Positions 1-18,581 of a stretch of 21,947 nucleotides of DNA are shown piece after piece. A program made the position numbers and the translations under genes. The DNA is taken from contig JBDRSA010000060.1 in NCBI GenBank assembly GCA_043825275.1, forward strand, positions 1 through 21,947, read 5' to 3'. The notes beneath the pieces are model-generated. The model saw nothing but the letters and a program-made list of their open reading frames with translations, was not told the DNA's origin and searched no databases. Position 1 is the first letter of the stretch, and each line of letters starts with the position of its first letter. This DNA comes from Candidatus Omnitrophota bacterium (GTDB taxonomy: Bacteria > Omnitrophota > Gorgyraeia > 2-01-FULL-45-10 > JBDRSA01).

Positions 1-3000
1 CTTGTGCATTCCCGCTACAGCACAAATACCTTCCCGACGTGGGACCTCGCGCAGCCGTTCAGGTTTCTCGCGCATAACGGTGAGATCAATACGCTGAGAG
101 GGAACGTCAATTGGATGCGGGCGAAGGAAGACCTGCTCACAAGCCCGCTTTTCGGGAAAGATATTGAAAAACTGAAGCCGATCATCGTGCCTGGAGGAAG
201 CGACTCCGCGGGAATAGACAATATTTCAGAACTACTGCTTCTTGCGGGAAGGCCGCTTGCCCATGTCGTGATGATGCTTATTCCGCCGGCCTGGGAACAG
301 AACAAGCTCATGGCGAAACATGAGAGAGATTTTTTCCGTTATCACGCCTGCCTCATGGAACCGTGGGACGGCCCCGCGGCGATCGCGATCACCGATGGGA
401 CAAGGATCGGCGCTGTCCTTGACCGGAACGGCCTTCGGCCGGCGCGATACCTTGTCACCAAGCGGGGCTTGATCGTCATGGCCTCGGAGGTCGGCGTTCT
501 CGATATACCGGCGTCTGATATCGCTTATTCAGGGAGGCTCGAGCCGGGCAAGATATTCTTCGTCGATACGGATGAGGGAAGGATCATCGATGACAGCGAG
601 CTAAAAAGGTCCGTCTCGACACGGAGGCCGTACGGGAAATGGGCGAACGACAAACTCGTTGACCTCGAAAAACTGTCGAAACCAAAAGAGAAGACGGAAA
701 AGGTCGCGGATCTGAGCCCGACGCTGAAAGCGTTCGGGTATACGCGCGAAGACATGAAGTTTATCATCCAGCCGATGGCAGCCGACGGTAAAGAGCCTAT
801 CGGCTCGATGGGGAATGATACGCCGCACGCTGTGCTCTCGAAAAAACCTCAGGTCCTCTACAGCTACTTTAAGCAGCTTTTCGCCCAGGTCACGAATCCC
901 GCGATCGACCCCATCCGGGAAGAGCTTGTTATGAGCCTTGAATGTTTTATGGGTTCGCGGAAGAATCTTCTCGATGAGACGCCTGACCACTGCCGGAAGG
1001 TCTGGTTGAAGCATCCTATCCTGACGAACGAGGAACTGTTAAAACTGAAGCATATCAACGAGAGCGGCTTTAAGACGAAGACGATCTCGATCCTTTTTGA
1101 CGCCTCCGACGAGAAGAATATGACAACCGCGCTTGACCGGATCTGCAGGGAGGCGAAAAACGCGATAAAAAAGAAGTACACATTCATCGTCCTGAGCGAC
1201 CGGAGGGTTACCGGGGAAAAAGCGGCTGTGCCGGCGCTCCTGGCGGTCGGGGCGGTCCACCAATATCTGGTAAAAAACGCGTCACGCTCACAGATAGCCC
1301 TGATACTTGAGAGCGCGGAACCGCGTGAGGTACACCACTTCGCGGTACTCCTGGGGTTTGGCGTAGGATGCGTAAACCCCTATTTGGCGTATGAGGCCAT
1401 CGACCGTTTGATCGAAGAAGAGCGCCTGAAGATCGACCGGAAGGCGGCGGTAAAGAATTACATAAAAGCGGTCAACAAGGGGATCATGAAGGTCCTCTCG
1501 AAGATGGGGATCTCAACGATCCAGAGCTACCGCGGGGCCCAGATATTTGAGGCGGTCGGCCTTCACGATGAGACGATCGAACGCTGTTTCGCGGGAACTG
1601 TCTCGCGGATCGGCGGGGTAGGGATCAGGGAGATCGCCCGGGAGACGATCCTTAGACATCGAGAAGCGTTCCCGAAGCGGGAAGGGGCAGGTGACCTTCT
1701 TGAGACCGGAGGTCTTTATCAGTGGAAATTGGACGGCGAATTCCACCTCTGGAATCCGAAAAGTATCGCCGCCATCCAGGACGCCTCAAAGAAGAATGAC
1801 TACATCCGCTATAAGGACTTTTCCCGGCTGATCAACGATCAATCCGAACATCCGACGACGCTCAGAAGCCTTCTATCCTTCAAAAAAAGAAAACCGGTCC
1901 TGCTATCCGAAGTCGAGCCGATATCATCCATTGTTACGCGCTTCGCTACCGGCGCGATGAGCTTTGGCTCGATCTCGCGGGCGGCGCACGAGTCGCTCGC
2001 GATCGCGATGAATAAGCTCGGCGGGAAGTCGAACACGGGGGAAGGCGGCGAGGACCCGGTCCGGTTCATGACACTCCCCTCGGGAGAGTCCGCCCGAAGC
2101 GCGATCAAACAGGTCGCGTCGGGGCGGTTCGGCGTAACGGCTAACTACCTGGTGAACGCCGATGAGCTGCAGATCAAGATCGCCCAGGGAGCGAAGCCCG
2201 GCGAAGGCGGGCAATTACCCGGACACAAAGTGAGCTCGACGATCGCTAAGATACGCTATACGACTCCCGGCGTGACGCTCATTTCGCCGCCGCCGCACCA
2301 TGACATCGATTCGATCGAGGACCTGGCGCAGCTTATCTATGATCTCAAGAACGCCAATCCGCGAGCGCGTATCAGCGTAAAGCTGGTATCTGAAGTCGGC
2401 GTTGGTACGATAGCCGCCGGTGTGGCGAAGGGTCATGCCGATATGATACTTATTTCGGGCGGCGACGGCGGGACGGGAGCGTCGCCGCGGAGCTCGATCA
2501 GGCACGCGGGGCTCCCCTGGGAGCTTGGACTGTCGGAAACCCACCAGACGCTCGTCCTGAACGACCTTCGCAGCAGAGTGCGGCTCCAGACCGACGGCCA
2601 GATGCGAACCGGACGCGATGTCGCGATCGCCGCGATGCTCGGCGCCGAGGAGTACGGGTTCTGTACCGCCGCGCTCATCGTGCTTGGATGCGTTATGCTC
2701 AGGCATTGTCACCTGAACAACTGTTCGGTCGGGATCGCGACACAGGACGACTTACTTCAGAAGCGGTTCCGGGGGAACCCTGAGCATGTCGTGAACTACC
2801 TCTCCTTTGTAGCTCAGGAGCTTCGTGAGATCATGGCCTTGCTCGGCATCAGGAAAGTCGACGAACTGATCGGAAGGACCGATCTTTTGGAGATGAACAA
2901 GTCGATGCTGGATTGGAAGACGCGAGGGCTTGATTTTTCAAAAATACTCTATAGACCGAAGGTCCCCCGGCCGGTTGAAGCATATTGCACAAAACCCCAG

Positions 3001-3840
3001 GATCACGGCATAGAGACTGTCCTTGACAAGGAGCTTTTGCGTCTCGCGAAGAAATCTCTTGAGCATCGGGAGCCGGTCCGCCTGTCGTTTGATATCAACA
3101 ATGTGAACAGGACGACCGGGACGATGCTCTCGGGCGAGGTCTGCAGGCGCTATGGTGAATGGGGGCTTCCCGAAGACACCATTTATTGCAAATTTAAAGG
3201 CGTGGCCGGTCAGAGCTTCGGCGCGTTCCTCGCGAGGGGCATTACCTTTGAGCTCGAAGGGATGGCGAATGATTATATCGGCAAGGGGATCTCAGGCGGC
3301 AGGATCATCGTATATCCGGGGGCGGGGTCGTCGTATAAGCCCGAAGAGAATATCATTATCGGGAATACGTCATTTTATGGAGCGATAAGCGGTGAGGCGT
3401 ACATCCGCGGGATCGCCGGGGAGCGGTTCTGTATCAGGAATTCAGGAATATACGCTGTTGTCGAAGGAGTGGGCGACCACGGCTGTGAATACATGACCGG
3501 CGGAAGGGTCATCGTGCTCGGGAAAACCGGGAGGAATTTCGGCGCCGGGATGTCGGGCGGGATCGCGTATATTTACGATATTGACGGCGACTTTAAGAAT
3601 AAGTGCAATAGGGACATGGTGATCTTCGATCGAATGAACGAAGACGACAGCATCATGATCAAGAACCTTCTTGTCGGACATGTAAAGACTACCAAGAGCG
3701 ACCGGGCCCGCTATCTTCTCGGCAATTTAGAAAGCGAAATGAAGAAGATCGTCAAGGTCATGCCCATAGAGTACAAGAGGGTCCTGGAAGGTAAACAGGT
3801 CGAGCAGTCTCTGGGTTTAGGCGAGGCTTCGGATGGATAG
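1..3840 (+). CDS. gltB: Glutamate synthase large subunit, 5' end cut by window edge
   Basis: The frame is open from nt 1, so the GTG at nt 4 is an internal codon. Class-II (Ntn) amidotransferase motifs: HSRYSTNTFP and LAHNGEINT. FMN-domain motifs: QGAKPGEGGQLPGHKV, SPPPHHDI, GGDGGTGASP. 3Fe-4S motif C-x5-C-x4-C (CVMLRHCHLNNC, about nt 2688-2723). C-terminal GXGXG beta-helix domain (GVAGQSFGAF, GVGDHGCEYMTGG). Stop TAG at 3838-3840. Confidence 0.97.
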   Translation, partial: LVHSRYSTNTFPTWDLAQPFRFLAHNGEINTLRGNVNWMRAKEDLLTSPLFGKDIEKLKPIIVPGGSDSAGIDNISELLLLAGRPLAHVVMMLIPPAWEQNKLMAKHERDFFRYHACLMEPWDGPAAIAITDGTRIGAVLDRNGLRPARYLVTKRGLIVMASEVGVLDIPASDIAYSGRLEPGKIFFVDTDEGRIIDDSELKRSVSTRRPYGKWANDKLVDLEKLSKPKEKTEKVADLSPTLKAFGYTREDMKFIIQPMAADGKEPIGSMGNDTPHAVLSKKPQVLYSYFKQLFAQVTNPAIDPIREELVMSLECFMGSRKNLLDETPDHCRKVWLKHPILTNEELLKLKHINESGFKTKTISILFDASDEKNMTTALDRICREAKNAIKKKYTFIVLSDRRVTGEKAAVPALLAVGAVHQYLVKNASRSQIALILESAEPREVHHFAVLLGFGVGCVNPYLAYEAIDRLIEEERLKIDRKAAVKNYIKAVNKGIMKVLSKMGISTIQSYRGAQIFEAVGLHDETIERCFAGTVSRIGGVGIREIARETILRHREAFPKREGAGDLLETGGLYQWKLDGEFHLWNPKSIAAIQDASKKNDYIRYKDFSRLINDQSEHPTTLRSLLSFKKRKPVLLSEVEPISSIVTRFATGAMSFGSISRAAHESLAIAMNKLGGKSNTGEGGEDPVRFMTLPSGESARSAIKQVASGRFGVTANYLVNADELQIKIAQGAKPGEGGQLPGHKVSSTIAKIRYTTPGVTLISPPPHHDIDSIEDLAQLIYDLKNANPRARISVKLVSEVGVGTIAAGVAKGHADMILISGGDGGTGASPRSSIRHAGLPWELGLSETHQTLVLNDLRSRVRLQTDGQMRTGRDVAIAAMLGAEEYGFCTAALIVLGCVMLRHCHLNNCSVGIATQDDLLQKRFRGNPEHVVNYLSFVAQELREIMALLGIRKVDELIGRTDLLEMNKSMLDWKTRGLDFSKILYRPKVPRPVEAYCTKPQDHGIETVLDKELLRLAKKSLEHREPVRLSFDINNVNRTTGTMLSGEVCRRYGEWGLPEDTIYCKFKGVAGQSFGAFLARGITFELEGMANDYIGKGISGGRIIVYPGAGSSYKPEENIIIGNTSFYGAISGEAYIRGIAGERFCIRNSGIYAVVEGVGDHGCEYMTGGRVIVLGKTGRNFGAGMSGGIAYIYDIDGDFKNKCNRDMVIFDRMNEDDSIMIKNLLVGHVKTTKSDRARYLLGNLESEMKKIVKVMPIEYKRVLEGKQVEQSLGLGEASDG

Positions 3841-4128: not shown

Positions 4129-5574
4129 ATGGGAGATGTAAAGGGATTCATAAAGGTAGCGCGGCAGAAAGCGCAGTATCGGCCCGTCTGCGAGCGGATC
4201 ATGGATTATAAGGAGATCGCCGTACCGAGAAGCGACGCGAAGTCAAGCGAGCAGGCGTCGCGCTGCATGGATTGCGGCACGCCGTTCTGTCATTGGGGCT
4301 GCTCGGTCGGCAATTTTATCCCTGAGTGGAACGATGCCGTATACGCCGGGCGCTGGAAAGAAGCGTACGAGATGCTCGATTCGACGAACAACCTTCCTGA
4401 AGTGACCGGAAGGATCTGCCCGGCGCTCTGTGAGTATTCCTGCGTATTGGGGATCAACGATGACCCGGTAACGATCAGCGAGAATGAGCTCTCGATCATA
4501 GAATACGCTTTTAAGAATGGATTTGTACAGCCAAGGCCTCCAAAAAAGCGAACAGGAAAAAAAATGGCCGTTATCGGCTCCGGCCCGGCGGGACTTTCGT
4601 GCGCGGCCCAGCTGAATAAAGCCGGCCATACGGTAACGGTATTCGAGAAAGACGATAAGATCGGCGGGATATTGCGCTACGGTATCCCGGATTTTAAACT
4701 TGAAAAATGGATACTCGACCGCCGTATCGCCCTATGGGAGAACGAGGGTGTGCGCTTTACGACGGGTGTGAACGTCGGCGTTGATTATCAGGCGAAAGAG
4801 CTTCTTGAGGAGTTTGACGCGGTAGCTCTGGCGGGCGGATCGCGCCAGCCGCGCGATCTCAGGATCGAAGGGAGAGACCTCAAAGGTATCCATTTCGCGA
4901 TGGACTATCTTATACAATCAAACAGAAGGATCAGCGGGGAGAAGATCCCCGAAAGCCGATTGATTGACGCGAAGGGGAAACGCGTTGTTGTGATCGGCGG
5001 CGGCGATACCGGCTCCGACTGTGTCGGGACGGCCCATCGGCAGGGAGCGGCGTGTGTTGTCCAGGTCGAGCTTTTGGAGCAACCGCCGGAATGCAGGACC
5101 GGTAAACAGCCATGGCCGCTCTATCCGGCGCTTCTCAAAACATCGACAAGTCACCAAGAGGGGGGGGAACGCCACTGGTCCGTGCTTACAAAAAAAATTA
5201 TCGGCGAGAATGGTCGCGTATCGGGGCTTTCGTGCGTTAAAGTGGAATTTTCAAGCAAGAAGGGCCTCTCGTGCCCTATCGTAAAGGAAGTGACCGGTAG
5301 TGCGTTCGATATCGGCGCGGACCTGGTTATTCTGGCGGTCGGCTTTGTCCATCCGGTCCATGACAAATTACTCGCCGACCTGGGCGTCGCCTTTGACGGC
5401 CGCGGAAATGTTAAAGCCGACGACTCTTTTAAGACCGCGAACAAGAAGGTATTCGCCGCCGGGGACATGCGGCGCGGGCAGTCGCTCATTGTTTGGGCGA
5501 TATCAGAAGGCAGGAAAGCGGCGCGGGCTATCGATCTATTTTTAATGGGCTCCTCAAAACTCCTTGATTTTTAG
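4129..5574 (+). CDS. gltD: Glutamate synthase small subunit (NAD(P)H-binding, GltD family)
   Basis: 481 aa. N-terminal Cys clusters CMDCGTPFCHWGC and CPALCEYSC. Dinucleotide folds VIGSGPAGL and VVVIGGGDTGSDC. GGAG Shine-Dalgarno 6 nt upstream of the ATG. Confidence 0.95.
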   Translation: MGDVKGFIKVARQKAQYRPVCERIMDYKEIAVPRSDAKSSEQASRCMDCGTPFCHWGCSVGNFIPEWNDAVYAGRWKEAYEMLDSTNNLPEVTGRICPALCEYSCVLGINDDPVTISENELSIIEYAFKNGFVQPRPPKKRTGKKMAVIGSGPAGLSCAAQLNKAGHTVTVFEKDDKIGGILRYGIPDFKLEKWILDRRIALWENEGVRFTTGVNVGVDYQAKELLEEFDAVALAGGSRQPRDLRIEGRDLKGIHFAMDYLIQSNRRISGEKIPESRLIDAKGKRVVVIGGGDTGSDCVGTAHRQGAACVVQVELLEQPPECRTGKQPWPLYPALLKTSTSHQEGGERHWSVLTKKIIGENGRVSGLSCVKVEFSSKKGLSCPIVKEVTGSAFDIGADLVILAVGFVHPVHDKLLADLGVAFDGRGNVKADDSFKTANKKVFAAGDMRRGQSLIVWAISEGRKAARAIDLFLMGSSKLLDF

Positions 5575-5621: not shown

Positions 5622-5650
5622 TTGACAGTTGTGAGCAAAATGTAGATAAT
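5622..5650 (+). promoter_or_regulatory. Sigma70-type promoter candidate upstream of the nuoE-like gene
   Basis: TTGACA (5622-5627), 17-nt spacer, GATAAT (5645-5650). Predicted transcription start about 5657. Confidence 0.55.
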
Positions 5651-5684
5651 ATTGTCATCAACACAACGGATGTGTTGACCGGAC

Positions 5685-5718
5685 AAAGGCGTTCTGGATC
5701 TCAGAGAACGCTTTTTTT
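5685..5718 (+). terminator. Intrinsic terminator-like hairpin with U-tract
   Basis: Stem GCGTTCT (5689-5695) pairs with AGAACGC (5705-5711), followed by T7 (5712-5718). An upstream AAA can extend the stem. A second 8-bp hairpin precedes it: TCAACACA (5658-5665) pairs with TGTGTTGA (5671-5678). Confidence 0.65.
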
Positions 5719-5748
5719 ATTTTTACAACATTAAAATTAGGATGGGGC

Positions 5749-6243
5749 ATGGCGACCAAAACAGTGAAAAGAATCAACTCTATTCTCAAGAACAGAGAAA
5801 AGAATCCACGTGAATTGATCGAAGTCCTCCAGGATGTCCAGGCAACTTTTAAGTATCTTCCAGAGCAGGAGTTGCGGATCGTTTCTGAAAAGCTGAATGT
5901 CCCCCTCATCGAAGTCTTCAGGGTCGCAAATTTTTATAAAGCGTTCACTTTGAAGCCGCGCGGCAAGCACCTGGTGACGGTATGCATGGGAACCGCATGC
6001 CACGTTCGGGGAGCGCCGAAGTTTGTCGATGAGGTTCTCGGGCAGCTCAGTATAAAACCGGGCGAGACTACCGAAGACGGCATGTTTACCGTTGAGACGG
6101 TGAACTGCCTCGGCGCGTGCGCTCTTGGCCCGATTGTCGTGCTCGATGGAACGTACCATGACCACATGACTACGGGGAAGCTGCGGGATTTGATTCAGAG
6201 CGTTACAAAGAAGAAGAAAGGTAGAAAGCGACGCCATGGTTAA
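5749..6243 (+). CDS. NuoE/HydC/HndA-like thioredoxin-fold [2Fe-2S] subunit
   Basis: 164 aa. Motif VCMGTACHVRG ... NCLGACALGP gives the C-x4-C ... C-x3-C pattern of the complex I 24-kDa family. AGGA Shine-Dalgarno 6 nt upstream. The 3' end overlaps the next gene by 8 nt (ATGGTTAA). Confidence 0.9.
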   Translation: MATKTVKRINSILKNREKNPRELIEVLQDVQATFKYLPEQELRIVSEKLNVPLIEVFRVANFYKAFTLKPRGKHLVTVCMGTACHVRGAPKFVDEVLGQLSIKPGETTEDGMFTVETVNCLGACALGPIVVLDGTYHDHMTTGKLRDLIQSVTKKKKGRKRRHG

Positions 6244-8089
6244 GATTCGGACTTTAAAGGATTTAGAATTTCTAGCTAAAAAAACTCGGGACTTAAGCAA
6301 AAAAAAGGCGATGACGGTCATTCTGTCGTCGGGGACGTGCGGTCAGGCGTGCGGGTCGTTGCATGTCGCTGATAAGCTTCGAAAAGAGATCGCGAGAAAA
6401 AAGCTAGAGAAAAAAGTAAATGTACGGATAACGGGATGCCACGGATTCTGTGAGCAGGAACCGTTGATGGTTGTTGAGCCTGAAAATATCTTTTATTGTC
6501 ACGTCAAACCCGATGATATTTTGGAAATTGTGTCTGAGACACTTCAGCGGGGGAGGGTAGTTGATAGGTTGCTCTATGTTGACCCGACAATAGGTAAGAA
6601 AATAGAAAAGGAAAAAGATATCCCGTTCTATAAAGCCCAGGAAAGGATCGTCCTCGGACAGAATAAACTTGTCGATCCGTGTAATATCCATGACTACGTT
6701 GAGAACGGTGGATATTCGGCATTTATAAAAGCCTTGAATTCAATGAAACCGGAAGAGGTTATCGAAGAAGTTAAGAAGTCGGGGCTCCGAGGCAGGGGCG
6801 GCGGCGGATTTCTTACCGGGAAGAAGTGGGAGCATTGCCGCAAAGCGGAAGGGGAGCCTAAATATGTCATCTGTAACGCGGATGAAGGAGATCCGGGGGC
6901 GTATATGGACAGGAGTGTGCTGGAGGGCAATCCTCACGAGGTTATCGAGGGGATGCTCATCGGCGCGTTCGCGATCGGCGCCCGCCACGGCTACATCTAT
7001 GTCAGGAACGAGTATCCGCTCGCGGTCCAGCACGCTAAATTTGCCGTGCAGCAGGCGGAAGAGCTGGGGCTTATCGGCGATGATATCCTCGGAAGCGGTT
7101 TCTCGTTCGATATCAGGATCGCGCGCGGCGGCGGCGCGTTTGTATGCGGTGAGTCGACCGCGTTGATGGCATCGCTTGAAGGAAAAGTTGGCGAACCGCG
7201 CGCGAAAGATGTCCATACGACCGACAAGGGGTTGCACGACCTTCCCACAAACCTGAATAATGTCGAAACGTGGGCGAATGTGCCGTTGATCATCAAAAAC
7301 GGCGCGAAGTGGTTTTCGTCGAAGGGGACCAAACAGAGTAAGGGCACCAAGATATTCGCCCTGACCGGGCAGATACGTAACACGGGCCTCGTTGAGATTC
7401 CTATGGGGATGAGTTTACGTAAAATTATCTATAAAATTGGCGGCGGTCCGGCAGTAGGAAGGAAGATAAAGGCGGTTCAGACAGGGGGGCCGTCAGGAGG
7501 ATGCCTGCCGGAACGCTTATTTGATCTGCCGGTCGACTTCGAGGCCCTGGACAAGGCGGGTTCGATGGTCGGCTCCGGCGGGATGGTCGTTATGGATGAG
7601 TCGACCTGTATGGTCGACGTCGCGAAGTATTTTCTGAAGTTTCTCATTGACGAGTCGTGCGGTAAATGTGTTCCGTGCAGGGTCGGACTCAGCCGCATGC
7701 TGGAGATCATCACCGACATCACCGAAGGAAGGGGCACGGAAGAGAAATTGGCGCTCCTCGAAGAGACGGCGCGTACCGTGTCGCTTGGTTCGCTCTGCGC
7801 GCTGGGGAAAACCGCCCCGAATCCCGTTCTTTCTACGATAAAGTACTTCAGGACGGAATACGAGTCGCATATCGCCAAAAAGAAATGTACCGCCGGCGTT
7901 TGCAGAGAGCTGATCAGCTACGCGATCGACGCGAAAAAGTGTACCGGGTGCGGCGTATGTCTGCGCGGCTGTCCGCATGGCGCCATTTCCGGGAAGGCGA
8001 AATCGGCGCATTCTATAGACAGAACGCGATGCAGCAAATGCGGCATTTGCAAAGAACAGTGCAGGTTTAACGCTATCGACGTGTTGTAA
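6236..8089 (+). CDS. NuoF/HydB/HndC-like NADH-binding FMN flavoprotein with extra Fe-S domains
   Basis: 617 aa. N-terminal thioredoxin-like 2Fe-2S domain (CGQAC ... CHGFC). FMN/NADH core motifs GRGGGGFLTGKKW, NADEGDPGAYMDR, CGESTALMASLEG. N3 cluster motifs SCGKCVPCR ... LCALG. C-terminal 2x[4Fe-4S] ferredoxin domain (CTGCGVCLRGCP, CSKCGICKEQC). Confidence 0.92.
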   Translation: MVKIRTLKDLEFLAKKTRDLSKKKAMTVILSSGTCGQACGSLHVADKLRKEIARKKLEKKVNVRITGCHGFCEQEPLMVVEPENIFYCHVKPDDILEIVSETLQRGRVVDRLLYVDPTIGKKIEKEKDIPFYKAQERIVLGQNKLVDPCNIHDYVENGGYSAFIKALNSMKPEEVIEEVKKSGLRGRGGGGFLTGKKWEHCRKAEGEPKYVICNADEGDPGAYMDRSVLEGNPHEVIEGMLIGAFAIGARHGYIYVRNEYPLAVQHAKFAVQQAEELGLIGDDILGSGFSFDIRIARGGGAFVCGESTALMASLEGKVGEPRAKDVHTTDKGLHDLPTNLNNVETWANVPLIIKNGAKWFSSKGTKQSKGTKIFALTGQIRNTGLVEIPMGMSLRKIIYKIGGGPAVGRKIKAVQTGGPSGGCLPERLFDLPVDFEALDKAGSMVGSGGMVVMDESTCMVDVAKYFLKFLIDESCGKCVPCRVGLSRMLEIITDITEGRGTEEKLALLEETARTVSLGSLCALGKTAPNPVLSTIKYFRTEYESHIAKKKCTAGVCRELISYAIDAKKCTGCGVCLRGCPHGAISGKAKSAHSIDRTRCSKCGICKEQCRFNAIDVL

Positions 8090-8175
8090 AAGTGGAGGGA
8101 TGATAGCGTATTAAATACAGTATTGGCCGGGCAATGGAGCCCGACGAGAGTGGTCAAGAAGACTAAGAAGTCGAA

Positions 8176-8883
8176 ATGGAGGCGATGATGCCTGCGTATG
8201 TAACGCTTACAATCGATGGAGCATTCGTGCGGGTACCGCGTAGTACCTCAGTGCTGGATGCGGCCTTAACAAGCGGGATCTGTATACCGCATCTGTGTCA
8301 TATGAATGGCGTTACCCCGATCGGCGCGTGCCGGATCTGTATCGTTGAATTGGTCAAGAACGGCAGATCAAAAGTTACCGCGTCGTGTACGCTCGAAGCT
8401 GAAGAAGGTATGGTTATTCTTGCCCATTCGAAAAAGATACTGCGGGCGCGGAAAAACATCGCGGAAATGCTCGTTGCTGAAGCTCCGAATTCGCGCGCAA
8501 TTCAGGACATCGCTGTCCGATGCGGCGTCAAAGAGGTGCGATATCCTTTTCGCAGGAATGATTGCGTTTTGTGCGGTAGGTGTGTGCGCGCCTGCGATGA
8601 GATATGGCGGTCTAAGTCACTGGGTTTTGTCGGCCGCGGGCCGGAGCGCCATGTCGCGCTGCCGTTCGATAAACGGCCGGAATATTGTAAGCGATGCAAC
8701 GCCTGTATCGATGTGTGTCCGATGACGATCACGCCGTGCTCCGGACCCATGAAGCCGGGCGAAGAGGCCCTGTGCGGGATGTGCGAGTCACAGTTATCGA
8801 TGGCTGAAAAGATCGAAGACACCTGTGTCGATTGCAGACTGGGAGACGGGTTCCATTGCGCGAGAAAAAGTTCTTACAGTTAA
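8176..8883 (+). CDS. NuoG/HydA N-terminal-like Fe-S protein (2Fe-2S plus 2x 4Fe-4S), no catalytic domain
   Basis: 235 aa. 2Fe-2S motif CHMNGVTPIGACRIC ... ASC. CVLCGRCVRAC and CKRCNACIDVCP. Extra C-terminal cysteines CGMC ... CVDC ... C. The His-ligated cluster motif typical of NuoG is not seen (AEMLVAEAPNS). The true start may be ATG 8185 or 8188, because GGAGG lies at 8178-8182. Confidence 0.8.
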   Translation: MEAMMPAYVTLTIDGAFVRVPRSTSVLDAALTSGICIPHLCHMNGVTPIGACRICIVELVKNGRSKVTASCTLEAEEGMVILAHSKKILRARKNIAEMLVAEAPNSRAIQDIAVRCGVKEVRYPFRRNDCVLCGRCVRACDEIWRSKSLGFVGRGPERHVALPFDKRPEYCKRCNACIDVCPMTITPCSGPMKPGEEALCGMCESQLSMAEKIEDTCVDCRLGDGFHCARKSSYS

Positions 8884-8909
8884 CGGCATGATGAGACAAG
8901 GAGAAGAAC

Positions 8910-10502
8910 ATGAATCTGCAGCAACCGAACGCAAATGATGTAACACAGACGGCGAACAGGTCGCGGAATGTCGTCCCTACCTCAGGGCTCTGTACGCGAT
9001 GTATCGACGGATGCCGCGGCAATTGCGAAGTATTCAAAGCAAGCTTTCGCGGCCGCGAAGTGATCTATCCCGGCCCATTCGGGGAAATTACGGCAGGAGG
9101 CGACAAGAATTACCCGATCGATTATTCGCATCTCAATATTCAGGGATATGCCATGGGGGCGAAAGGTTTGCCGAAAGGGGTTGAAGGTAATCCCGATACC
9201 GCGATATTTCCGGCGGTAGATACCGAGACCGAATACGGCTGGGATGAGAAGGTGAAGTTGAGGATCCCCGCGTTTACGGGAGCGCTCGGGTCGACCGAGA
9301 TCGCGAGGAAGAACTGGGAGCACTTCGCGATCGGAGCGGCTATTTCCGGAGTTACCCTTGTTTGCGGTGAAAATGTCTGCGGTATCGATCCAAAACTGGA
9401 GCTCGACAAACATGGCAAGATCAAGAAGGCCCCGGACATGGACCGCAGGATCGAGACGTACCGGCGATTCCACGAGGGCTACGGCGAAATCCTTGTCCAG
9501 ATGAACGTCGAAGATACCCGTCTCGGCGTCGCTGAATACGTCAGCAAGAAGCACAAGCTTGAAACTATAGAGCTGAAGTGGGGGCAGGGCGCGAAGTGTA
9601 TCGGCGGAGAGATCAAAGTCGAGAGCCTCGACCGCGCGCTTGAGCTGAAGAAGAGAGGCTATATCGTTACGCCGGATCCGTCCGTAAAATCGGTTCAGAA
9701 AGCGTATAAGCATGGCGCGATCAGGGAGTTCGAGCGTCATTCACGTCTCGGGTTCGTTACCGAAGAGGCATTTTTTGCGGAGATCAAACGGCTTAGAGAC
9801 ATCGGATTCAAACGTATTACGCTGAAGACCGGCGCCTATCCGATGCGTGAGCTTGCCATGGCGATCAAGTATAGTTCTTTGGCCAAGATAGATCTTTTAA
9901 CCATAGACGGCGCGCCGGGCGGAACGGGGATGAGCCCCTGGCGGATGATGGAAGAGTGGGGCGTGCCTACCTTCTATCTGCAGTCGATGACGCATGAGAT
10001 ATGTGAGCGGCTCGCGAGAAAGGGCATGCGCATTCCCGATATCGCCATAGCCGGCGGCTTCTCAACAGAAGATCACCTATTCAAAGTGCTGTCGATGGGA
10101 GCGCCGTACGTGAAAGCGGTCTGTATGGGAAGGGCCTTTATGATCCCGGGCATGGTCGGTAAGAATATCGGCTACTGGATCGAAAGCAAAGATCTTCCGC
10201 AGACGGTTTCCCGTTTCGGGAAGACGCCGAATGAGATATTTGTCTGCTATGACGAGCTTGCCGAGAAGTACGGGAAGGACATAAAAAATATTCCGCTCGG
10301 GGCCTTGGGAATCTACAGTTTTTCCCAGAAGCTCAAGGTTGGCCTGCAGCAGCTTATGGCCGGCAGCAGGAATTTCAGGCTCAGCACCATTACCAGGAAT
10401 GATGTGATGGCGCTCACCGAAGAAGCAGCGAGAGTATCGGGGATCCCCTTTATTATGGATGCTTTTCGCAAGGAGATGGAGGAGATCGTCGAGGCAAGGT
10501 AA
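8910..10502 (+). CDS. Glutamate synthase-related FMN-domain protein (GltB domain-2 paralog, no amidotransferase or GXGXG domains)
   Basis: 530 aa. WGQGAKCIGGEIKV matches GltB QGAKPGEGGQLPG. DGAPGGTGMSP matches GGDGGTGASP. IAGGFSTEDHLFKVLSMGA matches the GltB FMN-phosphate region. N-terminal CTRCIDGCRGNC (nt 8991-9026). AAGGAGA Shine-Dalgarno upstream. Confidence 0.85.
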   Translation: MNLQQPNANDVTQTANRSRNVVPTSGLCTRCIDGCRGNCEVFKASFRGREVIYPGPFGEITAGGDKNYPIDYSHLNIQGYAMGAKGLPKGVEGNPDTAIFPAVDTETEYGWDEKVKLRIPAFTGALGSTEIARKNWEHFAIGAAISGVTLVCGENVCGIDPKLELDKHGKIKKAPDMDRRIETYRRFHEGYGEILVQMNVEDTRLGVAEYVSKKHKLETIELKWGQGAKCIGGEIKVESLDRALELKKRGYIVTPDPSVKSVQKAYKHGAIREFERHSRLGFVTEEAFFAEIKRLRDIGFKRITLKTGAYPMRELAMAIKYSSLAKIDLLTIDGAPGGTGMSPWRMMEEWGVPTFYLQSMTHEICERLARKGMRIPDIAIAGGFSTEDHLFKVLSMGAPYVKAVCMGRAFMIPGMVGKNIGYWIESKDLPQTVSRFGKTPNEIFVCYDELAEKYGKDIKNIPLGALGIYSFSQKLKVGLQQLMAGSRNFRLSTITRNDVMALTEEAARVSGIPFIMDAFRKEMEEIVEAR

Positions 10503-10538: not shown

Positions 10539-10567
10539 TTGACAATGAGGCCGTGAAGGAGTAGAAT
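10539..10567 (+). promoter_or_regulatory. Sigma70-type promoter candidate upstream of carA
   Basis: TTGACA (10539-10544), 17-nt spacer, TAGAAT (10562-10567). A second TATAAT lies at 10642-10647 with no good -35. Confidence 0.55.
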
Positions 10568-10575
10568 ACGAATTG

Positions 10576-10636
10576 AGAGAAACAAAGGCGTCCTTTCTAT
10601 ATACAACGAAGTAGAAAGGACGCTTTCTCTTTTGTT
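10576..10636 (+). terminator. Long hairpin with U-rich tail (terminator or attenuator-like) in the carA leader
   Basis: 12-bp stem GCGTCCTTTCTA (10588-10599) pairs with TAGAAAGGACGC (10612-10623). An outer 7-bp helix pairs AGAGAAA (10576-10582) with TTTCTCT (10624-10630). The 3' tail is TTTCTCTTTTGTT. Confidence 0.55.
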
Positions 10637-10675
10637 GAGGGTATAATACCGGTTTATGATACCGCAGGGGATCGA

Positions 10676-11779
10676 ATGAATAAGACAAAAAAGGCAAAAA
10701 TAGTCTTCGAAGACGGAAGGACTTTTGCGGGGAGTTCTTTCGGCGCCGGGGGAACCACCTTCGGCGAAGCTGTCTTCAATACCAGCATGTCAGGCTATCA
10801 GGAGATCCTTACCGACCCTTCCTACAAAGGACAGATCGTCGCCATGACCTACCCGCTTATCGGAAATTATGGGGTCAACTCCGAGGACGTAGAGTCGAGA
10901 AGACCGTTTGTTGAGGGTTTTGTCGTAAAAGAGAGAAGCCGCATCGCCAGCAGCTGGCGGAGCGAGCGGACTCTCGATGAGTATCTTGAGGAGAATGGTA
11001 TTATCGGCATCGAAGGGATCGATACGCGGGCGCTCACCCGGCACATCCGTCTTAAGGGCGCCATGAAAGCGGTCATATCAACCGATGATCTTGATGAGAG
11101 AAGACTAAGAAAAGCCGCGAAGAATTCCCGCGGCCTTACCGGGATAGACCTTGTGAAAGAGGTGCGATACGAAAAGATCACGCGCTGGAATAAGAAGGGA
11201 AAATATACGATCGCTGTTCTCGACTGCGGCGTTAAATTCAATATTCTCAGACGGCTTGATGAAATCGGCTGTAAAGTTGTCGTGGTTCCTTCTGACGCGG
11301 ATGCGGCTACGATACTGGATGAAAAACCGGACGGGATCCTGCTTTCGAACGGGCCCGGCGATCCGGCCGGCGTTCCGTATATTGTCGATACCGTCCGGAA
11401 CCTTATCGGGAAAGTACCGATATTCGGCATCTGCTTCGGACATCAGATGCTGGGGCTTGCTCTCGGCGGAAAGACCTACAAGTTAAAGTTCGGCCACCAC
11501 GGCGGGAACCACCCGGTAAAGGACCTGAAGACCGGCCGCGTCGCTATCACCGTCCAGAATCACAGTTTCTGCGTCGATGTCGACACGCTCAAAAAGAGCG
11601 ATATTGAGATCACCCACATCAACCTGAACGACAATACCCTTGAAGGTATGAGGCACAAAAAGCTCCCGATCTTCTCGGTCCAGTTCCATCCGGAATACGG
11701 CCCCGGCCCGCGGGACGCGGTGTATTTGTTCGGCGAGTTCGTAGATATGGTGAAGAAGCATGCGAAGAAGGGTCGATAA
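10676..11779 (+). CDS. carA: Carbamoyl-phosphate synthase small (glutaminase) subunit
   Basis: 367 aa. N-terminal FEDGRTFAGSSFGA and FNTSMSGYQEILTDPSY. Triad GATase motifs GICFGHQ and VQFHPE. Confidence 0.97.
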   Translation: MNKTKKAKIVFEDGRTFAGSSFGAGGTTFGEAVFNTSMSGYQEILTDPSYKGQIVAMTYPLIGNYGVNSEDVESRRPFVEGFVVKERSRIASSWRSERTLDEYLEENGIIGIEGIDTRALTRHIRLKGAMKAVISTDDLDERRLRKAAKNSRGLTGIDLVKEVRYEKITRWNKKGKYTIAVLDCGVKFNILRRLDEIGCKVVVVPSDADAATILDEKPDGILLSNGPGDPAGVPYIVDTVRNLIGKVPIFGICFGHQMLGLALGGKTYKLKFGHHGGNHPVKDLKTGRVAITVQNHSFCVDVDTLKKSDIEITHINLNDNTLEGMRHKKLPIFSVQFHPEYGPGPRDAVYLFGEFVDMVKKHAKKGR

Positions 11780-11992: not shown

Positions 11993-13474
11993 ATGCCAAA
12001 AAGAACTGATATAAAAAAGATACTGATCATCGGCTCCGGGCCGATCGTGATAAGCCAGGCCTGCGAGTTCGACTATTCCGGCACCCAGGCCTGCAAAGCG
12101 CTCCGTGAAGACGGGTACAAAGTAGCCCTTATTAATTCAAATCCCGCTACGATCATGACCGACCCCGATATGGCGGATGCGACGTATATTGAGCCGATAA
12201 CGCCGGAAGTCGTCGAGAAGATCATCGAGAAAGAACGGCCCGACGCGATCCTGCCGACGCTTGGCGGGCAGACCGGGCTCAATACGGCCATGAAGATCTG
12301 CGAAATGGGCGTTCTCAAGAAGTACAACGTGAAGATGATCGGCGCGAATTATAATGTTATCAGGAAAGCCGAAAACAGGAACGATTTCAAAAAGGCGATG
12401 CTGAAGATCGGCCTCGACCTGCCGAAGAGCATGCTCGCGCATAGCATGAACGGCGCGCGGAAAGCTCTTAAAAAGATAGGCCTTCCGGTCATTATCCGGC
12501 CGAGTTTTACGCTCGGGGGCACCGGCGGCGGGATCGCGACGACGAAAGAAGAGTTCGAGTATATCGTTGCCCTGGGGCTCAAAAACAGTATGACCAGCGA
12601 GGTCCTGATCGAGGAGTCGATCGTCGGGTGGAAAGAGTACGAGCTCGAAGTGATGCGCGACATAAAAGACAACGTCGTTATTGTCTGTTCGATCGAGAAT
12701 CTCGATCCGATGGGGATCCACACGGGGGACTCGATCACGGTCGCGCCGCAGCAGACCCTGACCGACCGTGAGTATCAGACGATGCGCGACGCGGCGATCG
12801 CGATCATGCGTGAGATCGGCGTCGCGACGGGCGGGTCGAACGTACAGTTCGCCGTGAATCCCAAAAACGGAAGGATGGTCGTTATCGAGATGAATCCGCG
12901 CGTATCGAGGAGCTCCGCGCTCGCCAGTAAAGCGACCGGGTTTCCGATCGCGAAGTTCGCGGCGAAGCTTGCCGTCGGTTATACGCTCGATGAGATACAG
13001 AACGACATAACGAAAGAGACGCCGGCTTCGTTCGAGCCGACGATTGATTACTGCGTCGTGAAGATCCCGAGATTTACGTTCGAGAAGTTTCCCGAAGCGA
13101 AGGATATCCTCGGTATTTCCATGAAATCGGTCGGAGAAACGATGGCGATCGGCAGGACGTTCAAGGAAGCGATCCAGAAAGGATTACGCGGTTTAGAGAT
13201 CGGCCATGTCGGGCTCGACAACAAGAAATCGTTCAGGAAGATACCGGACAGCAAGATGTACAAGCGCCTGAAAGAGCCGAACGCGTCGAGAATATTCTAC
13301 GTAAAATACGCCCTTCAGAGGGGGATGAGCGTCAGGAAGCTCGCGGATATTACCGGTATCGACCCCTGGTTCATTCACAACATTAAAGAGATCGTCGATC
13401 TGGAGAAAAAGATAAAACAGGTTGCCAGTTGCCAGTTGCCAGAAAACAGAGAAAAAAATTCCCGCTGCCGATAG
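11993..13474 (+). CDS. carB: Carbamoyl-phosphate synthase large subunit, N-terminal portion of a frame-interrupted copy
   Basis: 493-aa [27 protein letters not shown], an ATP-grasp domain, and part of the oligomerisation domain. Homology to the downstream full-length paralog stops near the A7 run. The last residues ([17 protein letters not shown]) are partly repeat-encoded or out of frame. Confidence 0.9.
13421..13441 (+). repeat. Heptanucleotide tandem repeat (GTTGCCA)x3 inside the carB frame-overlap zone
   Basis: Exact copies at 13421-13427, 13428-13434 and 13435-13441. An A7 homopolymer follows 10 nt downstream at 13452-13458. Confidence 0.95.
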
Positions 13475-15231
13475 ACCTTCTAAAAAAGGCGAAGGAATTT
13501 GGGTTCAGTGACTGCCAGATAGCGGAGCTCATTGGTTCAGACGAGCTTGCTGTTCGCGGAGGTCGAAAAAAACTGGGTGTCCAGGCGACCTTTAAACTGG
13601 TCGATACCTGCGCGGCCGAGTTTGAGGCGTATACGCCGTATTACTATTCGACGTATGAATCCGAAGACGAATCGCGCCCTTCGAAAAAGAAGAAGATCAT
13701 GATATTGGGCGGCGGGCCGAACAGGATCGGACAGGGGATCGAGTTTGACTATTGCTGCTGCCACGCTTCGTTCGCGCTGAAAGAGCTTGGTTATGAGACA
13801 ATCATGGTGAACTCAAATCCCGAGACCGTATCGACCGATTACGACACTTCCGACAAGCTCTATTTTGAGCCGCTTACATTTGAAGACGTGATGAACATTG
13901 TCGACAGAGAAAGGCCGGATGGGGTAATAGTCCAATTCGGCGGGCAGACGCCTTTGAATCTCGCTAAAAAACTCCTTGACGCGGGTGTCCCCATAATCGG
14001 CACCTCGGTCAGATCTATCGATAACGCTGAAGACAGGGACAAGTTCGCGAAGCTTATCAGAAAGCTGAAGATCGACCAGCCGCCAAACGGCTCCGCGACC
14101 TCAGGAGAGGAAGCGCTGAAGATCGCGCGGCGGATCGGATACCCGATCCTGGTGCGGCCGTCATATGTGCTCGGCGGAAGGTCCATGAGGATCGTTTATA
14201 ACGATTCGTCGCTGAAAACTTTTATTAAAGAGGCCGCGGATACTTCACGGGAGCTTCCGATCCTGATAGACAAATTCCTTGAGGATGCCGTTGAGGTCGA
14301 CGTCGACGCGATTTCAGACGGAACGATGACCGTTATCGGCGGTATCATGGAGCACATTGAGGAAGCCGGGGTTCATTCCGGCGACTCGGCATGCGTGCTT
14401 CCGCCGCATACGCTGAGCGATGAGATCATCAATACGATACGGGATCATACGATCGCGATCTCAAAAGAGCTTAAAGTCGTCGGCCTTTTGAACATTCAGT
14501 TCGCGGTTAAAAACGATGTGGTATTTGTCCTCGAGGTAAACCCGAGGGCGTCGAGAACCGTGCCGTTCGTCAGCAAAACGATCGGTGTCCCGCTCGCGAA
14601 ACTCGCGGCAAAGGTTATGACGGGAAAGACCCTGCGTGAACTCGGATTCACCAAAGAAAAGCATATTGAACATATTTCGGTAAAGGAATCGGTGCTTCCG
14701 TTCTCAAGGTTTTCAGGAGTCGATATACTGCTCGGGCCTGAGATGAAGTCGACCGGCGAGGTCATGGGTATCGATACTTCGTTCGGCGTGGCCTTCTATA
14801 AAGCGCAGGCCGCGGCTGGACACGTCCTTCCGAAAAGCGGCAAAGTTTTTATCAGCGTCAAGAATGACGATAAGCGCGACGTGGTCTTTCTCGCGAAGAG
14901 ATTATGCGACATCGGATTTGAGATCCTCGCGACAAAAGGGACCGCCAAGGTTTTCAGGTCAAATGCCATAAAAGCAAAAACGCTCGGGAAGATCGGTGAG
15001 GGGCACACCGAACTGCTGGACCTTATCAAAAAGGGTGAGATACATCTTATTATTAATACTCCATCGGGCCAGCGGGGGCAGTCTGACATGAAGCCGATCC
15101 GCAGCCTTGCGGTCCTGCAGGGGATACCGTGCATAACGACGATCCAGGGAGCTCAGGCGACGGTAAACGGCATTGATTCAATAGCGAAAAAAGAACTTAC
15201 GGTCCGATCGATCCAGGAGTATCTTTCTTGA
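13429..15231 (+). CDS. carB: Carbamoyl-phosphate synthase large subunit, C-terminal portion of the frame-interrupted copy
   Basis: This frame is -1 relative to 11993-13474 and is open from 13387. Homology begins at [16 protein letters not shown] (nt 13459 onward). Second ATP-grasp ([20 protein letters not shown]) and MGS-like allosteric domain are present. The TTG start given in the ORF track has no convincing Shine-Dalgarno. Confidence 0.88.
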
Positions 15232-15300: not shown

Positions 15301-15353
15301 AATGTGCTGATAAATCATAGAGAATGTTGTTGTTCAATCGAGAAGGAGAGGAC

Positions 15354-18565
<3,212 letters not shown>

Positions 18566-18581
<16 letters not shown>

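Follow-up and report, generated by a model that had tools for sequence, protein, structure and literature searches.

A Bfu-type NADH–ferredoxin module encoded together with a glutamate synthase-like FMN protein in a nitrogen-gene locus of Omnitrophota

The E-F-G-X locus and its Bfu-type module

A 21,947-nucleotide contig of a Candidatus Omnitrophota bacterium (JBDRSA010000060.1, assembly GCA_043825275.1; its whole length is called the window) carries four consecutive genes, here named E, F, G and X, that encode three NuoE-, NuoF- and NuoG-like electron-transfer proteins and a flavin mononucleotide (FMN) TIM-barrel protein with a glutamate synthase-like domain. All large open reading frames (ORFs) of this 21.9-kb window lie on the + strand, and by Pfam and NCBIfam they were ordered as gltB (cut by the edge), gltD, E, F, G, X, carA, carB in two pieces, a second full-length carB, guaA and purF, and so the locus appears to be a run of glutamine- and glutamate-handling genes. 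An earlier note on this DNA had proposed that E, F and G form a HydBC/Bfu-type module serving X, and its four co-directional genes with overlaps or short gaps were found on the + strand at the coordinates and spacing that it gave. The features are as follows.

4–3840, + strand: canonical gltB (Pfam/NCBIfam), 5′-truncated by the window edge, directly upstream
4129–5574, + strand: canonical gltD (TIGR01317, 641 bits), directly upstream of E-F-G-X
5622–5650, + strand: promoter-like site TTGACA-17-GATAAT between gltD and E, a consensus match only (11 of 12 positions)
5658–5724, + strand: putative leader RNA of ANTAR-type design (fold −24.1 kcal/mol, z = −3.65)
5749–6243, + strand: E, NuoE/HoxE/BfuC-like thioredoxin-like [2Fe-2S] subunit, 164 aa (PF01257, 3e-46)
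6236–8089, + strand: F, BfuB/HydB-type NuoF flavoprotein, 617 aa, overlapping E by 8 nt (Pfam and PDB alignment)
8176–8883, + strand: G, short BfuA-type NuoG-N-terminal protein, 235 aa, 86 nt after F (Fer2_4 and Fer4_Nqo3)
8910–10502, + strand: X, FMN TIM-barrel protein, 530 aa, 26 nt after G (PF01645, 51 bits)
10583–10640, + strand: carA leader, a variant attenuator (AAC-AAAGGC-GTCC) with a strong terminator (fold −33.9 kcal/mol, z = −4.71)
10676–11779, + strand: carA, downstream of X, with its own promoter-like site at 10539–10567

The true start of G is probably 8185 or 8188, judging by a GGAGG motif and the N-termini of homologs, and X has a good Shine-Dalgarno sequence (AAGGAG, 8 nt upstream of its start). 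The gltB of the window possesses the glutaminase, central and GXGXG domains (Pfam), and both the adjacency of canonical gltBD and a promoter-like sequence of the cluster's own (5622–5650) were seen as the earlier note described them.

Profile-HMM annotation placed E, F, G and X in the families expected from that note. The best PDB matches of E were BfuC chains (9MQX_C, 7P5H_C and 7T2R_C, also 8A6T). Pfam identified in F the Complex1_51K, SLBB and NADH_4Fe-4S domains, a C-terminal Fer4 dicluster and a weak N-terminal 2Fe-2S_thioredx domain (residues 22–101), i.e. F is made up of an N-terminal 2Fe-2S domain (C35, C39, C68, C72), an FMN/NADH core with an N3-type [4Fe-4S] cluster and a C-terminal 2×[4Fe-4S] domain. 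It aligned over residues 1/28–614 to the bifurcating chains 7T2R_B, 8A6T_B and 9MQX_B with E values of ~1e-224 to 1e-227, and its C-terminal and N3 cysteines are conserved in all three; in the PDB these structures are the NiFe-HydABCSL of Acetomicrobium mobile (A. mobile), the HydABC of T. kivui and the WorABCSL of A. mobile, respectively. Both accessory domains of a HydB/BfuB-type protein were therefore recovered by Pfam and by end-to-end PDB alignment, and the cysteine motifs quoted earlier are present (C35/C39 and C68/C72 in F; C28/C31/C35/C39 in X).

The N-terminal domain is the variable part of F. Several F relatives retain just one Cys of the first N-terminal pair. A BfuB sub-group comprising the window F (residues 27–76) and the proteins of L082, L083, L086, L104, L105, L128, L161, L168 and L169 (L numbers label the related loci, 2.05 Mb in total) has S(S/A)GTCGxA(C/R/S/K)GS for CxGTGC, with three or four Cys remaining at altered spacing, and a further group (L108, L111, L131, L143) has lost both Cys of the canonical motif; the clusters carried by this domain may differ from one family member to another.

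G contains a [2Fe-2S] motif and two CxxCxxCxxxCP motifs, and the position of the His-ligated cluster motif is occupied by APNSRA, that motif being absent. Pfam detected no H-cluster or molybdopterin domain in the 235-aa protein, as the earlier note had read it, and the closest solved chain was WorA (9MQX_A, 247 aa, 1.5e-33). Its C-terminal tail is Cys-rich (C188, C200, C203, C217, C220, C228), a trait common to the G proteins linked to X or to its paralogous clade X′ (~50% identity to X) and absent from the unrelated G of L056 and L065. These two loci had been considered as E-F-G-linked X loci and were dropped, G being long and molybdopterin-like in L056 and having a different tail in L065. 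Likewise discarded were two apparent G-X fusion ORFs (747 aa in L089, 729 aa in L128), whose N-terminal extensions are out-of-frame read-through across G on GC-rich contigs.

The Bfu family is defined by an invariant BfuBC core, and its Type 2 members have a BfuA with clusters A1, A2 and A4 only, lacking A3 and A5, with the catalytic site on extra subunits (Schut et al., PMC9304861). F matches this definition for BfuB, E for BfuC and G for the N-terminal domain of a Type 2 BfuA, and by every criterion testable on sequence E-F-G is a genuine HydBC/Bfu-type module. The earlier restriction of Bfu partners to hydrogenase, formate dehydrogenase and transhydrogenase is outdated, a complex with tungsten aldehyde oxidoreductase having been solved (9MQX), and CODH, POR, Bam and others have been predicted as partners (PMC9304861, PMC12318220).

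The FMN protein X, its gene partners and its leader

Pfam detected in X only Glu_synthase (PF01645; 51.3 bits versus a cut-off of 20.4, residues 286–412), a family matched by 47/47 X family members tested, and no GATase_2, Glu_syn_central or GXGXG domain; NCBIfam yielded no match. Comparison of the X family with a small alignment of GltB and archaeal-GltB FMN domains by hhalign gave a full-length match at 97.8% probability, this alignment being needed because the single-sequence profile of the window GltB produced a 40-column match only. The X motifs GALGST, GE-N, VQ..EDTRLGV, KWGQGAK-IGGE, DGAPGGTGMSP and AGGF..ED were thereby lined up with the GltS signature motifs GAMSFG, GEGG, QVASGRFGV, QGAKPGEGGQ, DGGTGASP and the last FMN-phosphate loop, and the X residues so aligned are invariant across the family. 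The only invariant cysteines are C28, C31, C35 and C39 of an N-terminal CX2CX3CX3C motif, and other invariant positions are G153-E-N-V, K223-W-G-Q-G-A-K229 followed by I-G-G-E234, E273-F-E-R-H-S-R279, D333-x-A-x-G-G-T-G-M-S-P343 and A381-G-G.

The X family is compact: searching 1.84 billion cluster representatives retrieved 192 representatives at E < 1e-30, mostly fragments. Identity remains 72–89% between bacteria and archaea, over Omnitrophota, Planctomycetes, Thermodesulfobacteriota, Dehalococcoidia, Nitrospiraceae, Methanoperedens, Methanothrix, Bathyarchaeia, Altiarchaeales and one Asgard archaeon. The AlphaFold2 model (mean pLDDT 71.7) shows a barrel that is confident over residues 100–485, and Foldseek matched it to FMN-dependent TIM barrels generally, including GltS (7MFM, 6S6S, 1OFE), whose chains have the highest sequence identity among the matches (17–18%). 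X belongs to a family of its own, strongly conserved and only a distant relative of the synthase domain of GltS; it appears to keep the synthase-site architecture with a changed electron entry, most likely a cluster on the N-terminal four-Cys motif, and plausibly works like the synthase site of GltS.

Pairing with E-F-G was next considered in X′, sampled by nine proteins that were picked from long contigs across a range of taxa. In 9/9 of the loci sampled (Aminicenantes, Thermoplasmatales, Halobacteriota, Methanoperedens and others), E, F, G and X′ formed one uninterrupted, co-directional operon (such operons lie in L161–L164, L167–L172 and L033/L046). In four of these nine operons F is fused to a GltD-like domain (1054–1058 aa), so that the NuoF core is followed by GltD-like Fer4_20 and Pyr_redox_2 in replacement of the C-terminal 2×[4Fe-4S] ferredoxin domain; such an F would imply two pyridine-nucleotide sites, with the ferredoxin site possibly absent.

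Fused F genes, each encoding ~1055 aa: L168:2056-5220; L169:2116-5292; L170:1078-4248; L172:1064-4228

From the side of F, a survey covered its 80 nearest metagenomic relatives. X adjoins the F relatives of at least 64% identity in 6/8 loci with enough sequence, in the order E-F-G-X or X-E-F-G. E-F-G is linked to X in the window, L025, L083, L089 and L030, and the X-E-F-G order was seen in L084/L087, L090 and L085, adjacency being kept despite rearrangement. More distant F relatives are mostly of hydrogenase type or belong to another conserved cluster, and a rough neighbour-joining tree placed the X-linked F in one clade and the X′-linked F in two to four other groups. Taken together, the coupling of a Bfu core to the X family appears to be ancient or repeated, and specific. 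The other cluster, well conserved and likewise of Bfu type (L095, L096, L116, L123, L124, L134, L137, L138, L141, L144–L146, L148) consists of four upstream genes (~182, 100, 390–416 and 310 aa), E, F, a G of ~237 aa and a ~150-aa gene, none of them X-like.

X and X′ stand side by side in some genomes (L036:10001-13258, L073:9911-13292, L023:7997-11590, L033:5042-11590 and L083); in Nitrospiraceae they are in tandem and followed by nrpR, and in Methanoperedens X is divergent from the E-F-G-X′ operon. Because both clades are present together in some genomes, non-redundant roles are suggested.

The neighbours of X recur and belong largely to nitrogen metabolism: the GAF-ANTAR regulator (14 loci), NrpR (16 loci), gdhA, glnA, gltBD, amt and glnB, as well as a PyrK-like/GltD-like pair, carAB, pyrG, purF, guaA, hisH/hisF and nadE. 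Just before X′ operons lie glnA (L163, L168, L172) or gdhA (L169), so that one of the two is directly upstream of three of the four fused-F operons (L168, L169, L172). In a Halobacteriota metagenome-assembled genome (MAG), E-F-G-X′ is immediately upstream of nifH-glnB-glnB-nifD-nifK (L171:465-10152), an arrangement that would tie E-F-G-X′ to the incorporation of freshly fixed nitrogen. The nitrogen and glutamate context, which the earlier note had deduced from gltBD, is thus strongly supported by neighbour genes, and E-F-G-X probably belongs to nitrogen assimilation. Upstream of X in L005, L013, L021 and L027 the order is PyrK-like, GltD-like (an NfnAB-like or GltA-like pair), gdhA, GAF-ANTAR, X, an arrangement that recurs in Omnitrophota/Planctomycetes with attenuator leaders before the first and the regulator genes. 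HisH/HisF was tried as a glutaminase partner of X and rejected, since in Dehalococcoidia the hisF upstream and the hisH downstream of X resemble normal his genes that sit within a nitrogen cluster rich in amidotransferases.

The E-F-G-X genes are preceded by a putative leader with two small hairpins. The promoter-like site upstream of it is to be read against a regional count of 6 such sites versus 7.1 expected in shuffles. Hairpin 1 (5658–5678) has a loop of 5–7 nt; the second, GGAC[AAAGGC]GTTC (5681–5694), shares its 3′ half with the 5′ arm of a terminator hairpin (5685–5715) that is joined by a T-run (5712–5724). In the related loci, the core GAC[AAAGGY]GTY with a terminator occurred at 32 sites, nearly all intergenic and co-oriented, upstream of stand-alone X, E of E-F-G-X, the GAF-ANTAR gene, amt/glnB, gdhA, the PyrK-like/GltD-like pair and the archaeal-type GOGAT subunit gene. 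At many of these sites the core is immediately preceded by another hairpin, which has an A..G.. loop and the pattern xxxAC[Axxxxx]GTxxx; the stems of this upstream hairpin vary between loci yet remain complementary in ~10–15 of them by simple count. Over the window Rfam gave no family at gathering scores, with chance-level matches only in the leader.

Leader sites in relatives: L018:3729-3778; L019:9888-9930, 14239-14273; L083:2789-2844, 7897-7952, 8065-8105; L165:6160-6195, 7916-7962

Such a design resembles that of the ANTAR antitermination systems, of which EutV, NasR and AmiR are examples, with Geobacter GnfR acting on nitrogen genes. Like them, the leaders would have two small hairpins, each with a loop of about six bases that has A at position 1 and G at position 4, and a terminator that overlaps the second hairpin; a GAF-ANTAR gene adjoins X in 14 related loci. 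Unlike in those systems, the sensor of the regulator is a GAF domain in place of a receiver domain; the window is without an ANTAR gene, and the RNA element is a candidate known from sequence with no Rfam match. A nitrogen regulon driven by ANTAR-type attenuators is therefore apparent as a prediction. L003 and L018 are relatives in which X comes straight after gltB-gltD, with no E-F-G between them. Comparison of L018 (gltB-gltD-[leader]-X) with the window (gltB-gltD-[leader]-E-F-G-X) indicates that E-F-G likely came to lie behind the regulatory leader of X itself, an arrangement that speaks for co-transcription and a common role.

Two side observations concern the downstream genes. The first carB (11993–15231) is broken into two ORFs (493 and 600 aa) that overlap in different frames, with the split exactly at three tandem copies of the 7-nt GTTGCCA (13421–13441), and is followed by the intact second carB (15324–18581); in relatives L003, L006 and L007 carB is an uninterrupted ORF of 1077–1099 aa, and the split looks like a repeat-slippage frameshift or an assembly error. 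L006 (JAIWAR010000004.1), labelled as Methanosarcinales archaeon, has the window gene order with 81% identity for X, 71% for carA, 79% for carB and 63% for purF, and may be of bacterial origin, wrongly binned into an archaeal MAG.

A proposed low-potential amination and what speaks for and against it

Based on the gene content, the conservation of domains and motifs, the operon linkage, the nitrogen-gene context and the shared leader, we propose, at a probability of about one half, that E-F-G-X is a four-subunit Type 2 Bfu complex supplying a GltS-like reductive aminase. The physical complex, its cofactors, substrate and ammonia dependence, and the direction and stoichiometry of its electron flow would be as follows. 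E, F, G and X would be one transcription unit expressed from its own promoter and ANTAR-type attenuator leader. The core of E (BfuC) and F (BfuB) would handle NAD(H) at its FMN and ferredoxin at its C-terminal [4Fe-4S] pair, and G would be a short BfuA wire of one [2Fe-2S] and two [4Fe-4S] clusters with its Cys-rich tail docking the catalytic subunit. From the G clusters, electrons would pass to a cluster on the CX2CX3CX3C motif of X and on to the FMN in its TIM barrel, where the substrate-loop motifs GE(N), Q-GAK-x-GGE and DGxxGGTGxSP match the glutamate synthase site. This FMN would reduce the imino acid that arises when ammonia combines with a 2-oxo acid, the likeliest reaction being 2-oxoglutarate + NH3 -> glutamate. 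Stand-alone X would presumably receive electrons from ferredoxin or another carrier. In the window and in the X′ clade, the Bfu 'plug' would let NADH and reduced ferredoxin give electrons at ~−400 mV, as these two jointly supply in the Bfu paradigm (PMC9304861); alternatively, NADH could bifurcate to the amination reaction and ferredoxin.

Several observations weigh against this proposal, the most direct of them from the strict X orthologs (at least 72% identity). X-type E-F-G lies within 10 kb of X in 7/80 species-level genomes (L023, L025, L030, L033, L039, L044, L046), and in 2/40 loci with at least 4 kb on both sides. The pairing claimed by the earlier note, for which it had named FMN-protein orthologs usually lying without nuoEF-like neighbours as a decisive objection, stands for X′ (9/9) and the nearest F clade (6/8) and runs into that objection for the strict X orthologs, which do usually lack such neighbours. 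Because E-F-G is mostly absent beside X, X must normally work with another donor and does not need the module to function, E-F-G being an add-on in the window. The coupling thus appears facultative for the X clade, with the window as a case of a Bfu module added.

The same counts favour X as a self-sufficient ferredoxin-dependent enzyme, with E-F-G as an unbound, independent NADH/ferredoxin module (e.g. for pool balancing) that is merely co-regulated; the variable gene order (E-F-G-X versus X-E-F-G) and another gene lying between E-F-G and X in L030 and L085 point in the same direction. However, no function has been described for a BfuBC core with a BfuA wire that lacks a third-substrate module (PMC9304861), every sampled locus has X′ contiguous with E-F-G, the Cys-rich G tail is specific to X/X′-linked modules, and the window genes are tightly spaced behind a single leader. 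We thus consider such an uncoupled arrangement quite unlikely, and it is likely that E-F-G-X acts as one complex.

A different partner for E-F-G, either the adjacent GltBD or a hydrogenase or formate dehydrogenase elsewhere, with X as an unrelated neighbour, would fit the position of E-F-G between gltD and X, the 22 kb of genome visible, and the F relatives at 54–62% identity, which mostly have a long HydA-like or other G next to them, on the downstream side. This is very improbable in view of the NAD(P)H site that GltD has of its own, the promoter-like site and terminator-containing leader between gltD and E, the E-F-G-X′ operons with neither gltBD nor hydrogenase nearby, and the X-linkage of the nearest F clade.

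Further objections arise from the proteins themselves. The first Cys pair in the N-terminal domain of F lies in SSGTCGQAC, versus the canonical CxGTGC of characterised BfuB proteins. For X, phmmer against the PDB matched no chain, GltS included, with either the single sequence or a 47-sequence profile, and BLASTP against the window GltB aligned only 74 residues around DGxxGGTGxSP (E = 4e-4). The [3Fe-4S] motif of GltS, taken as a CX5CX4C-type motif of three Cys after the last FMN-binding strand, was not found in X, where the stretch aligned to the GltB Cys motif is GKNIGYWIESKDLPQTV, with zero Cys. Because neither this motif nor the glutaminase/tunnel domains were found on testing, X appears not to be a glutamate synthase in the strict sense, and that identity is not established. 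Of the earlier description of X as a 530-aa GltB FMN-domain paralog, the loss of the amidotransferase and GXGXG domains held, and 'paralog' overstates a similarity whose BLASTP match spans 74 residues and whose homology is clear only by profile-profile comparison. In the structural model the N-terminal 100 residues are of low confidence, and Foldseek scored glycolate oxidase and IDI-2 as high as GltS. Complete GOGATs also share loci with X (gltBD in the window, the archaeal type in L058/L068), so X fills no obvious gap, and a place next to glutamine synthetase (GS) would suit an enzyme that uses glutamine better than one that uses ammonia.

These features of X lend themselves to another explanation, in which the Bfu complex is real and X does not form glutamate, acting instead on another 2-oxo or imino acid or catalysing a non-redox GltS-like reaction as in N-methylglutamate synthase. 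X is remote from GltS, with equal or better Foldseek scores for other FMN barrels; IMPDH was matched in 10/47 family members and FMN_dh in 2/47; and complete GOGATs are in the same loci. The X position aligned to what we take to be Gln978 of GltS is an invariant Glu. Subunit C of N-methylglutamate synthase (MgsC) carries the same NCBI name (PMC6237917). Against it stand the consistent neighbours glnA, gdhA, gltBD, nrpR, PII, amt and nif, the existence of GltD-fused F variants and the conservation of the Q-GAK and GE motifs, and a redox input module argues against a non-redox X. A non-glutamate X within a real Bfu complex is, on balance, unlikely.

The energetics offer a last objection and its possible answer. 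The standard potential of the 2-oxoglutarate + NH4+/glutamate couple, from the glutamate dehydrogenase (GDH) equilibrium constant, is ~−133 mV, far above NADH, and the postulated need for low-potential electrons depends on assumed concentrations. With 50–100 mM glutamate, 0.5–1 mM 2-oxoglutarate and 1–10 µM ammonium, the couple was calculated to lie at −330 to −380 mV, which is the range of other Bfu third substrates. At those levels NAD(P)H cannot drive amination, and cells normally pay ATP via GS-GOGAT; therefore, a −400 mV donor could drive ATP-free ammonium assimilation where NAD(P)H-GDH cannot. For stand-alone X, ferredoxin alone could perform such an ATP-free amination.

Within the proposed complex, we infer 2-oxoglutarate as the substrate and a dependence on ammonia. 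Glutamate as the product is a tentative assignment, falling a little short of even odds. Free ammonia would be the nitrogen donor because no glutaminase is present in X or its operon, the E-F-G-X and E-F-G-X′ operons encoding no glutaminase, central or GXGXG domain gene; this is the more doubtful of the two assignments. Most speculative, and unlikely as a whole, is the extension that X and X′ are unrecognised glutaminase-less Fe-S/FMN reductive aminases that combine ammonium with 2-oxoglutarate by low-potential electrons, redox energy replacing the ATP of GS-GOGAT.

A full-text search, with most subscription journals outside its coverage, retrieved no paper describing a Bfu enzyme with a GltS-like FMN subunit. 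Known or predicted third substrates of the Bfu family are H2, formate, NADP, aldehydes, CO, pyruvate, aryl-CoA, F420, quinones and H2O2, glutamate being unmentioned in the family paper and its supplement, and 18/57 Bfu clades are unassigned (PMC9304861). The E-F-G-X module may be among these clades; if our proposal is true, one uncharacterised clade of that paper would gain a function, and a biosynthetic, nitrogen-assimilating reaction would be added to the family. The X family lies in the core nitrogen regulon of many uncultured anaerobes and has no solved structure or curated family model. In the textbook view, ammonium is assimilated by GDH at high ammonium and by ATP-dependent GS-GOGAT at low ammonium, and a third entry would be needed if X makes glutamate from ammonium with low-potential electrons. 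Energy-starved Omnitrophota, Aminicenantes, Dehalococcoidia, Methanoperedens, Methanothrix and Asgard archaea would then be able to turn ammonium into glutamate with high affinity and without ATP, by a route that ANTAR or NrpR would switch on when nitrogen is limiting. X alone in most genomes, Bfu-plugged in some and with a GltD-fused core in others constitutes a natural experiment.

Comparison with known systems

Glutamate synthase (NADPH-GltS composed of GltB and GltD, or ferredoxin-GltS) shares with X the PF01645 FMN barrel with the synthase-site motifs, invariant in X, an Fe-S to FMN electron input, as proposed for X, and the nitrogen context. Some X′ operons have GltD-like domains fused to F, and GltD is the subunit through which electrons classically enter GltB. 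In contrast, X is without the PurF-type glutaminase, central and GXGXG domains, none of which is encoded in the operon; it has the N-terminal CX2CX3CX3C instead of the CX5CX4C [3Fe-4S] motif and no detectable sequence match to solved GltS, and its proposed input is a NuoEFG-like module rather than GltD or free ferredoxin.

The archaeal-type split glutamate synthase, with separate GATase, FMN(+Fer4) and GXGXG proteins, is similar in having a lone FMN protein of ~500 aa with an N-terminal Fe-S motif. Its FMN subunit differs in falling into another cluster (c25), in having an N-terminal 2×[4Fe-4S] ferredoxin domain and in being encoded with GATase and GXGXG. The full archaeal set adjoins X in L042, L058 and L068; therefore, X would be additional to the archaeal synthase and not an instance of it.

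The Bfu-type transhydrogenase NfnABC/Stn (9N5U, 8OH5) likewise joins a BfuBC core to a glutamate synthase-derived part. There, a GltD-like (beta subunit) FAD domain is fused to BfuA and binds NADP(H), whereas X is a separate relative of the alpha-subunit FMN/synthase domain, and the gltD of the window lies outside the operon.

The nearest solved system is the Type 2 Bfu enzyme WorABCSL of A. mobile (9MQX), which is among the best PDB matches for E, F and G, being top for E and G and third for F. WorA is short as G is (247 versus 235 aa), lacks the His-ligated cluster and a large C-terminal domain, and has a Cys-containing tail, its C-terminus being a zinc finger plus helix that recruits the catalytic module (PMC12318220). 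The G tail is not the zinc finger and helix of WorA, and its docking of X is a proposal; X is an FMN TIM barrel rather than a tungstopterin enzyme with a polyferredoxin WorS wire, and it would be expected to run in the reductive (biosynthetic) versus the oxidative direction. WOR is ferredoxin-dependent alone and bifurcating with the BfuABC 'plug', i.e. a separate catalytic subunit of the complex is elsewhere a lone ferredoxin-dependent enzyme (PMC12318220), which parallels stand-alone X and the Bfu-plugged X proposed for the window.

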